Shown: positions 1-39,189 of the stretch, in pieces
Position numbering within the stretch: position 1 is the first letter of the stretch
Layout of the letters: every line of letters starts with the position of its first letter
Assembly: GCA_026397315.1 (NCBI GenBank)
Contig: JAPLVC010000001.1
Span: 149,111-213,110 of the forward strand
Reading direction: 5' to 3'
Source: Candidatus Aenigmatarchaeota archaeon
GTDB taxonomy: Archaea; Aenigmatarchaeota; Aenigmatarchaeia; QMZP01; QMZT01
Length of the DNA: 64,000 nucleotides
Notes under the pieces: generated by a model
Seen by the model: the letters and a program-made list of their open reading frames with translations, nothing else
Told to the model about the DNA's origin: nothing
Databases searched by the model: none
Translations under genes and position numbers: made by a program

Positions 1-1
1 C

Positions 2-403
2 GCTTTTCCTAAATGGATTCTTGAAAATAAAAATTATTTCAAAGAATTCACGAAAAGATTTTATAATTGCGAGGGCACTTGCTGGGGAGGTAAAAGCCCG
101 GGCATAGGCTTTGAGATGTGGAAAGAAACTGGTAAAATCGACAATTTAAAAGAATTTCTGGAAGTCATAAGATGTGGCCTGAAAAAATTTTTCGATATAA
201 AAACGACGGAAATTTTCACGACAAGTTCCGTGCATAACAGAAAGGATGGCTATGTGACAAGGCCTCTGAGGTTTTATATAAAAAGAAAAGAGTCTATATT
301 TAAATTCTATAGAGATATAGGATTTGAATACGAAAAACAAAATAAATTGAAAAACATAATAGAAAATTGGGGCAGAACCTCTGTGGGAACTGAAGTGCCA
401 TAA
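2..403 (+). CDS. hypothetical protein, 5'-truncated at the window edge; its K/F/Y-rich C-terminal region is compatible with a homing-endonuclease-like fold, but this is unproven
   Basis: The reading frame stays open from position 2 into the listed ORF 116..403, with no stop upstream. Composition is AT-rich, unlike the following GC-rich trm1. The ORF ends at TAA 401-403, immediately before the tRNA-like element. Confidence 0.4.
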   Translation, partial: AFPKWILENKNYFKEFTKRFYNCEGTCWGGKSPGIGFEMWKETGKIDNLKEFLEVIRCGLKKFFDIKTTEIFTTSSVHNRKDGYVTRPLRFYIKRKESIFKFYRDIGFEYEKQNKLKNIIENWGRTSVGTEVP

Positions 404-510
404 CAGTAGCTCAGCCCGGGAGAGCGCTCGTATGTAGCGGGAATAATGAATCCCGCTTCATGGCGAAGCTGAAGACCGATAGGTCGTGGGTTCAAATCCC
501 ACCTGTCCCA
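404..510 (+). pseudogene. degenerate tRNA-Tyr-like element (or tRNA remnant)
   Basis: A D-arm (TAGCTCAGCCCGGGAGAGC), an anticodon-loop-like ..ATGTAG.., a T-arm (GTGGG-TTCAAAT-CCCAC) and a 3' acceptor strand CTGTCCC plus A are all present. The 5' half is about 75% identical to the intron-containing tRNA-Tyr at 38996..39189, and the 3' half shares ACCGATAGGT(C/T)GTG(G/A)GTTCAAA. However, 4 of 7 acceptor pairs and 2 of 5 anticodon-stem pairs cannot form. Confidence 0.45.
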
Positions 511-546
511 TATTTTATTTTTATTCTTTCCATCGAATCATTCTCT

Positions 547-1620
547 ATGAAAAAGATCGCCGAAGGCAAAGCAAAACTTTACGTTCCAGACGAATCGCTG
601 ACGAAGGACTCGGAAACTTTCTACAACTCGGCCATGGAGCATCAGCGTAACGTGACGATCGCTTGCGTGCGGCTTGCTGGCTCGAAGGACGCGCTGGATC
701 CGCTAGCGGCGACCGGCGTGCGCGGCATCCGCCTGTTAAAGGAAGCAGGCGTCGCCAAAGTCGTGCTCAACGACGTCAGCCCCGCAGCCATAAAACTCGT
801 GCGCAGGAATCTCGTGCTCAACAAGATAAAAAAGTCATCTTATGAAATCTCCAGGAAGGACGCGAACGAGCTTTTCCTCGAAAAAAGGCGCTACAACTTC
901 GTCGACATAGACCCTTTCGGCTCGCCCATCAAGTTCCTGAGAAGCGTCTCTTATGCACTCAGGAAGGACTCGCTGCTGGGCGTGACCGCTACTGATTCCG
1001 GCGCGCTCGCAGGCAAGTTCGCCGACGCCTGCTTCAGGCGCTACGGCGTTTTCGTGTGCGCCACGGACTTCCCGAAAGAGCTGGGCGTGCGCGTGCTCAT
1101 CACTTCGATTCTCAAAAACCTCGCGACGCACGAGATGACTTTCGAGCCGCTGTATTCGCATGCGAACCACTATTTCCGCGTTATCGGACGCGTCTCGTAC
1201 GGGCCGGACAAGAACGTCTCCAAAATAAAAATGGTCTCGTACTGCCCGCAGTGCCATAACAGGAAAATCGGTGTCGAGAGCGTATGCGATAACTGCAAAG
1301 GCGAAATGAAACATATCGGTCCCATATGGACGGGAAAAATCCATGACAGCGAATTTTGTAAAAAGCTGCTGGAAAATTTCGAATTCTCCGGGAAAAGGGA
1401 GATAGAGCTTTCCGCGGCAGAGATAGACCATCCGTTCTATTACGACCTCCACATGCTGGCCCAGTCACTCAAGACCAGCCCTCCGCGCATGGAAAAGCTC
1501 ATCGAAAAGCTGAGAGCGAAAGGCTTCGAGGCGTCGAGAACGCACTTGGAACTCAGGGCCGTAAAAACTAATGCGGGCATAAAAGCAATATCAGTCTTGA
1601 TAGCGGCCGGTAAGAAGTGA
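547..1620 (+). CDS. trm1: tRNA (guanine26-N2)-dimethyltransferase Trm1
   Basis: A 358-aa product starts at MKKIAEGKAKLYVP. The TRM1-family layout is present: a SAM-binding Rossmann region (DALDPLAATGVRGIRL, VVLNDVS), DIDPFGSP and a C-terminal Cys-cluster domain. The start was moved from ORF 460 to ATG 547 so the gene clears the tRNA-like element. Confidence 0.85.
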   Translation: MKKIAEGKAKLYVPDESLTKDSETFYNSAMEHQRNVTIACVRLAGSKDALDPLAATGVRGIRLLKEAGVAKVVLNDVSPAAIKLVRRNLVLNKIKKSSYEISRKDANELFLEKRRYNFVDIDPFGSPIKFLRSVSYALRKDSLLGVTATDSGALAGKFADACFRRYGVFVCATDFPKELGVRVLITSILKNLATHEMTFEPLYSHANHYFRVIGRVSYGPDKNVSKIKMVSYCPQCHNRKIGVESVCDNCKGEMKHIGPIWTGKIHDSEFCKKLLENFEFSGKREIELSAAEIDHPFYYDLHMLAQSLKTSPPRMEKLIEKLRAKGFEASRTHLELRAVKTNAGIKAISVLIAAGKK

Positions 1621-3803: not shown

Positions 3804-5549
3804 TTAATTTTTCTTATTTTTTATAATATTGCTAGTCTTGTAATCGCCCAGTTTTTCCCTGATTCTCACAATTTTACACACAATGCCATCTTCAGCCAGA
3901 AGCTTCGCTAGCGCTTTCTCGTCAGCCTTCTGGTCATGGCCCAGCGCTATGATATCCGGCATAGCCCACATTATCGTTTTTAAATAACTGCTTTCTTCTT
4001 TGCCCAAAAATGCACCGTCAACATAAGATATTTCTTCCATGACGGCCAATCGTTGCTTTTCCTCGTTAATAGGTAATCTTCCCTTAAAATTTTTTGCAGT
4101 TTGATCTCTGGCTATTATGACTATCAACAAATCTCCCAATAATTTGGCGGATTTAAGCAAATGTAAATGTCCTGGATGTACTATATCAAAAACTCCTCCA
4201 GTAAGAACAACCTTGAATTTCATCCTACCTTTCTCATTTAGTGAATATTTTCCTGGGAGAAAACCAATTAATGACGATCTTCCTCGACTGCCTAAAAAAA
4301 CTCTATCGCTCATCTTATTTACAAGACCTTCACGTAGGAGTTTGCTAACTATCCTTGCCGTTCTAGTATATGTTCTTTGACATTTTAAAGATAATTCGGG
4401 TATTGTGAAAAAACCATATCTGAGTTCTAAAAGGTATGCTTTTTTTAAAAATTCAACAGAAGCTTTACTGTTAGGAAATTGATATTGTTGATAGGAAGAT
4501 AAAGCAACTTTTAATTTTTCCTTTTTATATTTCAAATCAGAACCAATTTTGGTTTCAAATTTAATAAGCTCACTTCTGTTGTCTATGTTTATTTGCCAAA
4601 CGCTAGAATCTGATTTGATTCCTTTGAACTTGGGTCCCACATATTCTATTCCGACTTTATCCAAAAGTTTGCAATCGCCCAACAGCAGAGGGGGTGGGGT
4701 TTTTTTGTCCCTGTTTACCAATCTTAATACAATTGACCGATGTTTCTTTTTTTGATTAAAATAAACAGAACCATCATCGTCAAAACATCTTCTAATAAAA
4801 GTCGTCAAAAATTTTTCATCGTTACCGAAAACAAAATTCGGAATATTCTGTTTATGTTTTTTCAAGTCCCTTTTAAACAAGCAAAGTGTTACTAATGCAA
4901 TAATCGCAGGTAATTTTATTGTATGGTTTGTTAAACTTTTATTCCAACCACCTTTAGGTTCTTCGATTTGACCAAAAATATTAAAAGCAGCATCCAAGAA
5001 GCTTTTTCTCATTAGAAATGCCTCTTTTTCATCACTTGCTTTTTTCTTCGTGTAGGCTGTGAAATTTTCATTTAAAAAGCCATCATGCATGATTGAAGAG
5101 ATATATAGAGCGCCATTATTTGTATTGAAATTGAAAGGTAGTTTGGGATTCAAAATGCTTTTCCTATAAGTTCCTTTGGGTGTTGTTAATTCAAGAATAT
5201 CTTGGTTCTTGATCAATTTAAAATTGTTAATATAATAAAGTATTTTTATCAAAAGAGACAATTTAATAAACTTTCCTTTATCTAGATTGTATAAGGCAGG
5301 GCAGTATCTTTGTCTTATCTTCTCTCCCAAAAACCTGCCAAACTCTGTCAGATTTTTAAAACCTCCCGTTTTTAAGGATAGAAAAATTAGCTCACGCCCC
5401 TTTTTTTCTGTTAATCTTAAGCTGGTTGAAGGGTGCAAATTCCACAAAAATACAATTCCGGTATTTGGTGGTTTATTGAAAAAATCTTGAGATAACAATT
5501 TTTCATTGAAATTCTCAAACGCTTCTTTTAAAAAATCAATTTCAACCAT
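3804..5549 (-). CDS. fusion protein: N-terminal LAGLIDADG-type homing-endonuclease-like double domain plus C-terminal cytidylyl/adenylyltransferase domain (FAD synthase RibL / TagD-like, HxGH class)
   Basis: Residues ~1-440 contain two LAGLIDADG-like motifs about 100 aa apart: ALYISSIMHDGF and FIRRCFDDDGSVYF. Residues ~441-581 form a complete small nucleotidyltransferase (KFKVVLTGGVFDIVHPGHLHLL ... ISYVD). The whole gene is strongly AT-rich compared with both flanks. Confidence 0.6.
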   Translation of the reverse strand: MVEIDFLKEAFENFNEKLLSQDFFNKPPNTGIVFLWNLHPSTSLRLTEKKGRELIFLSLKTGGFKNLTEFGRFLGEKIRQRYCPALYNLDKGKFIKLSLLIKILYYINNFKLIKNQDILELTTPKGTYRKSILNPKLPFNFNTNNGALYISSIMHDGFLNENFTAYTKKKASDEKEAFLMRKSFLDAAFNIFGQIEEPKGGWNKSLTNHTIKLPAIIALVTLCLFKRDLKKHKQNIPNFVFGNDEKFLTTFIRRCFDDDGSVYFNQKKKHRSIVLRLVNRDKKTPPPLLLGDCKLLDKVGIEYVGPKFKGIKSDSSVWQINIDNRSELIKFETKIGSDLKYKKEKLKVALSSYQQYQFPNSKASVEFLKKAYLLELRYGFFTIPELSLKCQRTYTRTARIVSKLLREGLVNKMSDRVFLGSRGRSSLIGFLPGKYSLNEKGRMKFKVVLTGGVFDIVHPGHLHLLKSAKLLGDLLIVIIARDQTAKNFKGRLPINEEKQRLAVMEEISYVDGAFLGKEESSYLKTIMWAMPDIIALGHDQKADEKALAKLLAEDGIVCKIVRIREKLGDYKTSNIIKNKKN

Positions 5550-38177: not shown

Positions 38178-38323
38178 TGAGCCCGGCGGGAATCGAACCC
38201 GCGACCCCCAGATGTCTTTCCGCACCTTGTTCTGTCATTGGCTTTCGCCAGAAAGCGATAACCTCAGCATACTTTTATCGAACAGATAAAAGTCTGGTGC
38301 TCTACCGATTGAGCTACAGGCCC
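38178..38323 (-). tRNA. tRNA-Lys (anticodon UUU) with a ~73-nt intron at the canonical 37/38 position
   Basis: Acceptor GGGCCUG/CGGGCUC (two G-U pairs), D-arm GCUC-AAUCGGUA-GAGC, anticodon stem CCAGA/UCUGG, loop CUUUUA+A, T-arm GCGGG-UUCGAUU-CCCGC, discriminator A. Confidence 0.75.
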
Positions 38324-38630: not shown

Positions 38631-38746
38631 GGTGAGCAGCTATCTGAGGTTCCCCCTTGTTCAGGAGTACTTTCCAGACCGTCGGAAAGTTTAACTTCCG
38701 TGTTCGAAATGGGAACGGGTGAACCTTTCCACTTTGGCCGCTCAAT
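38631..38746 (-). rRNA. rrf: 5S ribosomal RNA
   Basis: The minus strand has ..CACCCGUUCCCAUUUCGAACACGGAAGUUAAAC.., matching the universally conserved 5S loop and helix region. Helix I pairs 5' UGAGCGGC with 3' GCUGCUCA. Length is about 116 nt. Confidence 0.7.
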
Positions 38747-38995: not shown

Positions 38996-39189
38996 TCCCC
39001 CGGGTGAGATTTCCATACGCGAAAGCTGCTGGTTTTCGCTTAAGCCTTTTCAACAAAAGGCTTATTTTGAACTCACAACCTATCGGTTTCTGAAGCGACT
39101 GCGAATGACCAACACACTCGTAAAACCGAGTTTAAGTCACCGTGCGAGAGTCTACAGCCGATCGCTCCACCAGATTGAGCTACCGAGGG
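38996..39189 (-). tRNA. tRNA-Tyr (anticodon GUA, C1-G72) with two introns (~64 nt at 37/38 and ~57 nt at 59/60)
   Basis: Acceptor CCCUCGG/CCGGGGG, D-arm GCUC..GAGC, anticodon stem AUCGG/CCGAU, loop CUGUAG|intron|A, T-stem GUGAG/CUCAC perfect, T-loop UUCAAA|intron|U, discriminator A. C1-G72 is the archaeal/eukaryal Tyr identity pair. Confidence 0.7.

Follow-up and report, generated by a model that had tools for sequence, protein, structure and literature searches.

Is the tRNA-like element that lies immediately upstream of trm1, at the start of a 64,000-nucleotide (nt) stretch of archaeal DNA (contig JAPLVC010000001.1; hereafter the window), the wreck of a tRNA gene or a tRNA gene that still works? 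The host, as placed by Trm1 homologues, is Candidatus Aenigmarchaeota, a DPANN lineage. A preliminary description of the window took the element for a degenerate, non-functional duplicate of tRNA-Tyr left behind as an attachment-site (att) remnant by an integrative element, and offered a split or trans-spliced tRNA as an alternative. We conclude from comparisons with related sequences, at a probability of roughly 85%, that positions 385-510 are a functional tRNA-Phe(GAA) gene with two bulge-helix-bulge (BHB) introns, at whose 5' end sits a homing-endonuclease gene (HEG) of the LAGLIDADG family. Together with 60-odd relatives, this locus ties one class of 5'-proximal tRNA introns to a HEG.

Identity of the interrupted tRNA gene

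The evidence that carries this reading is an exact match. Joining positions 385-388, 404-430, and 468-510 yields a sequence identical at 74 of 74 positions to an intron-less tRNA-Phe of a relative (L008, 2883-2956; GGGACAGTAGCTCAGCCCGGGAGAGCGCTCGGCTGAAGACCGATAGGTCGTGGGTTCAAATCCCACCTGTCCCA), which ARAGORN calls tRNA-Phe(gaa) and which scores 68 bits against the Rfam tRNA model over model positions 1-71, its full length. ARAGORN also calls the spliced window construct tRNA-Phe(gaa). With 431-467 removed, the anticodon GAA stands in the 7-nt loop CTGAAGA (469-475), and U33, G1-C72, and A73 are all present. GGGA and CAG combine into GGGACAG, which pairs perfectly with CTGTCCC, the same as in L008. 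The sole non-standard pair in the spliced tRNA, C27.U43, is carried by the intron-less relatives as well. A tRNA-Phe gene stands upstream of trm1 in L002, L003, L004, L005, L008, L011, L095-L098, and L100, and in four of these (L003, L008, L096, and L097) tRNA-Phe(GAA) is uninterrupted at the same site, between a gene of 92 amino acids (aa) and trm1.

Standard searches make poor work of the gene as it is written in the DNA. ARAGORN reports 0 tRNAs in the raw whole window and, with its intron search, only a tRNA-Lys; it is because of this blank that the gene looks broken. The raw locus matches the Rfam tRNA family (RF00005) at 403-506 with 29.7 bits, where the gathering score is 29, and the match is confined to model positions 4-67 and includes 46 inserted nt in the anticodon arm. 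A tRNA-Phe covariance model recovers 400-510 at 43.5 bits (E 5.5e-9). Scanned against Rfam by E-value, positions 1-700 gave no further RNA family and no group I intron. Two other parses were rejected. When intron 1 alone is deleted, ARAGORN -i returns a tRNA-Met(cat) with a 26-nt intron and an implausible 20-nt variable arm, which we take for an artefact. A tyrosine reading with the loop ATGTAGA folds in ARAGORN, but with U31.C39 and C27.U43 mismatches and without C1-G72, and its anticodon falls in a stretch for which L002, L011, and L095 have other sequence.

Much of what the preliminary description saw in these letters holds. The D-arm is real (GCTC, 409-412, with GAGC, 422-425), the T-arm is perfect (GTGGG TTCAAAT CCCAC) and is followed by the 3' acceptor strand CTGTCCC and A (503-510), and an AT-rich open reading frame (ORF) does run in frame 2 to the window edge, from position 403 back to position 2. 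The ATGTAG that was read as an anticodon loop is present at 432-437, but it lies within intron 2. The likeness to the window's tRNA-Tyr (38996-39189) is likewise real, at 73% over the mature sequences with a common ACCGATAGGTYGTGRGTTCAAA, but it is generic: tRNA-Phe and tRNA-Asn are 66% identical, tRNA-Tyr and tRNA-Asn 69%, and CCGATAGGTCG is also found in a relative's tRNA-Asn.

The conclusion drawn from these features does not survive. The acceptor and anticodon stems that were held to be unpairable, and hence non-functional, both pair once 389-403 and 431-467 are removed. A decaying att copy of tRNA-Tyr would account for a 5' half about 70% identical to tRNA-Tyr, a common 3' motif, the GTA at 434-436, the foreign-looking AT-rich ORF that adjoins, and the silence of ARAGORN on the raw window, but we give it almost no credence. 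The exons match an intact orthologous tRNA-Phe at 100% and carry G1-C72, against C1-G72 in the window's tRNA-Tyr, and the GTA falls inside an intron that has another sequence in L002, L011, and L095, where the exons do not change. The ORF encodes a LAGLIDADG endonuclease and no integrase, there is no att-type direct repeat, and the tRNA is syntenic in 12 related lineages. Extending the window upstream, as the preliminary description had asked, reveals a host gene and a tRNA-Asn, with no element boundary and no integrase. Its second thought, an unusually processed tRNA, came closer, in that the first four acceptor bases do lie 15 nt upstream, inside the ORF; the three exons, however, are colinear within 126 nt of one strand, as in cis-splicing, and the gene is neither split nor permuted. 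The features of the locus are collected in Table 1.

Table 1. Features at the start of the window, in window coordinates
Feature	Position	Strand	Remarks
3' part of the HEG ORF	2..403	+	Frame 2; 133 codons and TAA at 401-403; open to the window edge
Copy 1, GGGGCAG, a second 5'-acceptor-like strand within the ORF	369..375	+	Pairs with 503-509
tRNA-Phe exon 1, GGGA, tRNA positions 1-4	385..388	+	Inside the last HEG codons
Intron 1, 15 nt at 4/5, relaxed BHB (bulge-helix-loop)	389..403	+	Holds the ORF stop codon
tRNA-Phe exon 2, positions 5-30: remaining acceptor strand, D-arm, and anticodon-stem 5' strand to G30	404..430	+	
Intron 2, 37 nt at 30/31, canonical BHB	431..467	+	Holds the TGTAG
tRNA-Phe exon 3	468..510	+	G31, loop CTGAAGA, anticodon 3' strand, variable loop, T-arm, 3' acceptor strand, A73; no encoded CCA
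T-rich spacer TATTTTATTTTTATTC...	511..546	+	100% identity between the window and L005; probably tRNA terminator and trm1 promoter
trm1, tRNA m2,2G26 methyltransferase	547..1620	+	Syntenic neighbour, outside the element

The two introns and the endonuclease gene

Introns were read by the BHB rule of two 3-nt bulges separated by a 4-bp helix, with a cut after the second base of each bulge. Intron 2 follows this rule, its central helix (CGCT, 425-428, with GGCG, 462-465) lying between bulges cut as CG/T and AA/G. Its 11-bp hairpin (432-442 with 451-461) is of other sequence yet still paired in L002, L011, and L095, and the exons there are unchanged. Across the tRNA-Phe 30/31 introns the central helix is paired at 4/4 positions in 11 of 12, through six different sequence pairs (CGCT/GGCG, CACA/TGTG, CGCA/TGCG, CAAT/GTTG, CAAC/GTTG, and CACT/GGTG), while false parses at random CTGAAG sites, our background for this score, mostly have 0-2 pairs and two have 3. 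In intron 1 the central helix GTGG (383-386) with CCAT (398-401) is paired at 4/4 positions with one G.U, and the bulges are GA/A (387-389) and AA/C (402-404). Helices of the ATGG/CCAT type accompany the 4/5 (or 3/4) intron in 37 further HEG-linked tRNA-Phe genes, with the compensatory variants CTGG/CCAG and GCGG/CCGT and, by hand reading, GCGG/CCGC in L014; the longer homologues of other loci (30-33 nt) show strict BHB motifs.

On this structure, the tRNA-splicing endonuclease would cut the precursor in the 3-nt bulges and the exons would be ligated, GGGA to CAGTAGC and GCGCTCG to GCTGAAGA. Trimming of the 5' leader and addition of CCA would then give a 74-nt tRNA the same as the intron-less product of the relatives. 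In the predicted precursor fold, positions 379-393 (leader, exon 1, and intron start; CUCUGUGGGAACUGA) are complementary to the D-arm region at 411-422 (UCAGCCCGGGAG), and in other loci the leader CTGAGCTC pairs with TAGCTCAG; to judge from these folds, the pre-tRNA leader may mask the D-arm before splicing.

The remainder of the ORF was recovered from a public contig, L001, found through the Trm1 protein. L001 overlaps the window over 11,620 nt with 0 mismatches and adds 951 nt upstream (L001 coordinate = window coordinate + 951), which hold the rest of the HEG, the 92-aa host gene, and tRNA-Asn. The full ORF encodes 260 aa (L001 572-1354) and is preceded by the 92-aa gene and, farther up, by tRNA-Asn. 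Its last seven codons and stop codon are TCT GTG GGA ACT GAA GTG CCA TAA, directly followed by CAG; exon 1 and the whole of intron 1 lie inside it, and the HEG stop codon is the last three bases of intron 1.

This ORF is a two-motif LAGLIDADG homing-endonuclease gene. Its motifs are LAGVVADLICDG (D49, G50) and FYNCEG (E151, G152), and among 31 aligned sequences D49, G50, and E151 never vary and conservation of G152 is 90% or more. The window protein alone falls below the Pfam thresholds and returns no match, and scans were therefore made at the level of the family. Pfam LAGLIDADG_3 (PF14528) matches 24 of the 31 family members at E<=0.01, and the family profile finds intein homing-endonuclease domains and PI-PfuI in the PDB. 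An AlphaFold model of P0121, a protein 94% identical to that of the window, has a predicted local distance difference test (pLDDT) of 93.4 and a predicted template modelling score (pTM) of 0.90 and adopts the pseudo-dimeric alpha-beta-beta-alpha-beta-beta-alpha fold. All 32 of its PDB fold matches at E<=1e-3 are LAGLIDADG proteins, I-Tsp061I and I-DmoI included, and its only low-confidence segment is the last six residues, those encoded by exon 1 and intron 1. The preliminary description was right to suspect mobile DNA in the AT-rich ORF, but the mobile entity is a homing-endonuclease gene and not an integrating element.

Distribution and linkage of the endonuclease gene

Among the twelve lineages in which tRNA-Phe lies upstream of trm1, the HEG and the 4/5 intron come and go together. 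Both are present in four (the window, L002, L005-7, and L011-12) and both are absent from eight (L003, L004, L008-10, L095, L096, L097, L098, and L100), with 0 discordant lineages in this trm1-syntenic clade. Several of the HEG-less lineages have other introns, at 30/31, in the D-loop, or in the T-loop. In the Trm1 tree the HEG-bearing L005 is sister to the HEG-less L008, the HEG-bearing L011 is sister to the HEG-less L097, and the pair formed by the window and L002 groups with the HEG-less L003. The tRNA-Phe of the more distant relatives L098 and L100 is likewise HEG-less: in L098 (1335-1442) it has a D-loop intron and a 10-nt T-loop insert, in L100 (1337-1470) a 60-nt T-loop intron, and across the clade tRNA-Phe is interrupted at many different positions.

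The module also appears to have moved recently. L001 and L005 have in common a 1.35-kb tract of the 92-aa gene, HEG, tRNA-Phe, and spacer at 92-100% identity, 273 identical bases included. The tract ends at about L001 1506 (window 555), nine bases into trm1, and identity then falls to 79%; in trm1 and TFB, L005 is as close or closer to the HEG-less L008. This pattern is as expected for recent gene conversion of the module between diverged hosts, and the internal stop codons of several HEG family members are as expected in a homing cycle. No relatives of the HEG family were found in viral contigs. The exchanged tract includes the gene at L001 268-546, which with its orthologues encodes a Cys/His-rich protein of 90-93 aa, has no Pfam match, and always lies between tRNA-Asn and tRNA-Phe.

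Scanning metagenome contigs with the family alignment extended the comparison to 79 HEG loci at 40-97% identity. The tRNA-Phe covariance model finds a tRNA beside the HEG in 67 of the 79, and most of the others end at a contig edge. The HEG flanks the 5' side of the tRNA in 64 of the 79, in 45 co-directionally, with the tRNA just downstream, and in 19 divergently, with the tRNA upstream on the opposite strand. Every HEG-adjacent tRNA inspected has the anticodon loop CTGAAG(A/C). The genes around the unit vary (an S17e or splicing-endonuclease gene in L013 and L014, the latter encoding a 185-aa EndA beside the HEG unit), and because these neighbours differ, the HEG must be regarded as linked to tRNA-Phe and not to trm1. 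The adjacency to Trm1 remarked on in the preliminary description is conserved synteny in this clade only; elsewhere HEG and tRNA-Phe units adjoin other genes.

An automatic parse sorted the 5' ends of these tRNAs into three states. About 11 are uninterrupted, with the HEG stop abutting G1 or formed by U8-A9-G10. The 4/5 (or 3/4) intron is present in 37 loci besides the window, and a 9/10 intron in 10, where the stop TAA is made of U8-A9 and the first intron base. In all, 47 of about 58 HEG-linked tRNA-Phe genes have an intron at 3/4, 4/5, or 9/10; the HEG-linked introns are 13-60 nt long and ORF-less. Orientation and the position of the 5'-proximal intron both track the HEG phylogeny.

These arrangements bear on whether the HEG is itself intron-encoded. 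Exon 1 could be the GGG at L001 574-576, which overlaps the ATG, so that the whole ORF of about 780 nt would be a BHB intron at 3/4-4/5 resembling the archaeal rRNA introns. A perfect helix could form between the ATGG with which the HEG starts and the CCAT of the intron; the leader ahead of the ATG is like that ahead of G1 in HEG-less loci; the distal site of L011 would yield GGGG+CAG, a valid acceptor strand; and the stop codon falls at the intron's 3' end. We nevertheless consider an intron-encoded HEG quite improbable. The distal site reads GGGC in the window and L005, with a C4.U69 mismatch, and GGAT in L002, which is unpairable, whereas the proximal GGGA is invariant and yields exactly the orthologous tRNA. 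In about 15 co-directional loci the ORF stops before exon 1 begins, and the HEG is on the opposite strand in 19, and for these reasons the family is best described as free-standing. Exon 1 is inside or downstream of the ORF; the ORF is not within its intron, as it is in a mobile intron.

In the window the HEG stands between the former promoter of the tRNA and the tRNA itself. A simple TATA regular expression places a TTTAAAAA box in many co-directional loci with its start 29 or 28 nt ahead of the HEG ATG, the spacing of leaderless archaeal mRNA, and no consistent TATA box precedes exon 1 in such loci. The promoter box of the HEG-less locus (TTTTTAAATAACA, L008) is kept upstream of the window's HEG ATG. 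A ATAATAGA box at 356-363 is a candidate internal promoter. Eight divergent loci (L045, L047, L056, L057, L075, L082, L088, and L090) have tandem 8-9-nt direct repeats between the HEG start and the tRNA-Phe promoter, namely TGTCCAGTG, TGTCGGATG, GGCAAATG, and TGTCGTTTA, each twice, which may be a protein-binding operator.

Upstream of exon 1, copy 1 can pair with the 3' acceptor strand, with a G.U at position 4, and in the minimum-free-energy fold of 360-515 the acceptor helix is built with copy 1. Of 30 co-directional HEG loci, 17, among them 10/10 of those with the 9/10 intron, have a full 7-nt copy at a distance of 10-36 nt before exon 1; 2 of 15 divergent loci have one, and mismatched controls give 6.4%. 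The copy always matches the 3' acceptor strand of its own locus, sometimes via G.U (GGGGCAG in the window; GGGACGG, GGGATGG, GGGAAGG, and GGGAGTG elsewhere). Its reading frames differ from that of exon 1, and it is therefore not a protein feature. Might it be the true 5' acceptor strand, with the 31 nt of 376-406 removed as one insertion at 7/8? Its pairing in the minimum-free-energy fold and its covariation with the 3' strand across loci would be explained, but the idea is very improbable: no BHB can be drawn, GGGC facing TAAC unpaired; the copy is not followed by U8 in loci of the 9/10 type; the product would carry G4 instead of the A4 of the orthologue; and the 4/5 intron is still present in the 13 of 30 co-directional and nearly all divergent loci that lack the copy. 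With GGGA as exon 1, copy 1 may keep the 3' strand paired for as long as the BHB ties up exon 1, may offer RNase P an initial site, or may be a relic.

Other genes of this neighbourhood are disrupted as well. The window's tRNA-Tyr(GTA), on the minus strand, has exons at about 39189-39152, 39087-39066, and 39009-38996, separated by introns of 64 nt at 37/38 and 56 nt in the T-loop, and it was missed by ARAGORN, by Rfam at the gathering threshold, and by the tRNA model used here. Clustered with it on the same strand are a tRNA-Lys(TTT) with a 73-nt canonical intron (38178-38323) and a 5S rRNA gene (38631-38745). The neighbouring tRNA-Asn (L001 1-87; L003 2364-2438; L008 2388-2498; L014 105-275) is intron-polymorphic: it has no intron in L003 and L097, one in the T-stem in the window's genome, one in the anticodon loop in L008, and several in L014. 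In L004, tRNA-Asn (1-115) and tRNA-Phe (445-556) have in common a 36-nt stretch, GGTTCAAAGAGCGTTTGACGTTCGCTAGCGAGCGTC, and therefore the same T-loop intron in two tRNA genes, which suggests intron copying between genes. Farther along the window, an ORF of 581 aa (3804-5549, minus strand) ends in 139 aa of a cytidylyltransferase that is free-standing at 139 aa in L005 and L008. Its AT-rich N-terminal extension of 440 aa, with a weak LAGLIDADG_3 match, looks like a second endonuclease-like ORF running into the 5' end of a host gene.

Homing as a proposed route of intron gain, and comparison with known systems

How might an endonuclease gene and a tRNA intron have come to travel together? In the scheme we propose, the enzyme would cut a HEG-less, intron-less tRNA-Phe near positions 1-10, and the HEG would be copied in by repair; the 4/5 or 9/10 intron would move with it and split the recognition site in the carrier, an arrangement known as collaborative homing. 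At co-directional loci one transcript from the HEG ATG would serve both HEG and tRNA, and the splicing endonuclease, ligase, and RNase P would release the tRNA from it. The LAGLIDADG family would then drive the gain and spread of non-canonical BHB introns, with the intron as the immunity determinant, the HEG translated from the pre-tRNA leader, and copy 1 organising tRNA release. We advance this last, wider version of the scheme tentatively, as a possibility whose chances are somewhat short of even.

A domesticated host factor, either maturase-like or a DNA-binding regulator of tRNA-Phe expression, would explain the same linkage as functional and vertically inherited. Such a role would suit an ancient, family-wide link to one tRNA gene whose arrangement tracks the protein phylogeny, an ORF that is intact and conserved in most loci, structural neighbours that include the WhiA transcription factor and the bI3 maturase, and the conserved tandem repeats between the HEG and tRNA promoters of divergent loci. 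We think it unlikely, given that presence is patchy, that eight lineages do well without the HEG, and that HEG-bearing and HEG-less lineages are sisters. Hosts 20% apart have a near-identical module in common, some copies are pseudogenised, and both catalytic acidic residues are invariant.

Several observations weigh against our own interpretation of the gene and of its homing. Intron 1 is of the relaxed type only and essentially lacks an intron helix, and for this reason its 5' splice site falls in a loop, of 11 nt; it would need a broad-specificity splicing endonuclease, and tblastn found no splicing endonuclease (EndA) gene in the window. The RNAfold minimum-free-energy fold of the precursor shows neither canonical BHB conformer exactly. 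The LAGLIDADG fold occurs in non-nuclease proteins too, WhiA and bI3 maturase being examples among the structural neighbours. About 11 HEG-linked tRNA-Phe genes have no 5' intron, and a tRNA-Phe gene can therefore live alongside the HEG without one; the 30/31 intron, for its part, is independent of the HEG (L095). Finally, an arrangement that tracks the HEG phylogeny would also fit long vertical residence.

The wider setting is one in which such genes are easily lost from view. DPANN archaea are reported to show increased tRNA gene disruption and incomplete predicted tRNA sets (PMC5829648, PMC4090602), and an extra loop in some DPANN splicing endonucleases has been connected with disrupted tRNA genes (PMC5829648). 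Here an essential tRNA gene could be mistaken for a pseudogene, its Rfam match being borderline and partial; standard finders miss this tRNA-Phe, and DPANN genomes therefore appear to lack it. The gene organisation is itself unusual, with an ORF that overlaps both exon 1 and an intron of a tRNA and with a covarying second acceptor strand. The origin of non-canonical archaeal tRNA introns is an open question. tRNA introns have been proposed as protection against attack at the DNA level, namely virus integration (PMC4090602), and the same 2014 review regarded the mechanism of tRNA intron transposition as still unknown and did not mention homing (PMC4090602). In the literature that we searched, which was incomplete, we found no report of HEG linkage to tRNA-Phe or of collaborative homing for archaeal tRNA introns. 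With this locus a single enzyme and two DNA substrates would suffice to put the question to the test, and the wider scheme, if true, would provide a first concrete DNA-level mechanism of archaeal tRNA intron mobility.

Among known systems, the gene resembles the multiply interrupted tRNA genes of Thermoproteales, Ca. Micrarchaeum ARMAN-2, and other DPANN, with short introns outside 37/38, strict or relaxed BHB motifs, several introns per gene, and a gene that standard tRNA finders miss. It differs from them in that its 4/5 intron (9/10 in relatives) is tied to a selfish protein gene, in whose frame exon 1 lies. With the archaeal rRNA BHB introns that encode I-DmoI and I-Tsp061I it has in common the endonuclease fold (matches 2dch, 1b24, and 2vs7), BHB splicing, and a structural RNA as host; unlike them, it has the ORF in the 5' flank or leader of the tRNA, outside the intron. 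T4 SegB (PMC2330249) is also a free-standing HEG among tRNA genes that spreads the flanking tRNA region by cleaving a HEG-less relative, a parallel that matches the co-conversion tract of L001 and L005, but SegB is a GIY-YIG enzyme of a phage, with no intron and no overlap of ORF and tRNA. The closest analogue is the collaborative homing of F-CphI with the psbA group I intron of a cyanophage (PMC6083498), where, as here, a free-standing endonuclease gene lies beside a gene with an ORF-less intron that would interrupt the enzyme's target, and the HEG and intron are co-distributed. There the intron is a self-splicing group I intron, the host a phage, the interrupted gene protein-coding, and the enzyme of the Endo VII type; ours involves a protein-spliced BHB intron, an archaeal chromosome, a tRNA, and a LAGLIDADG enzyme that is predicted to cut near the intron site.

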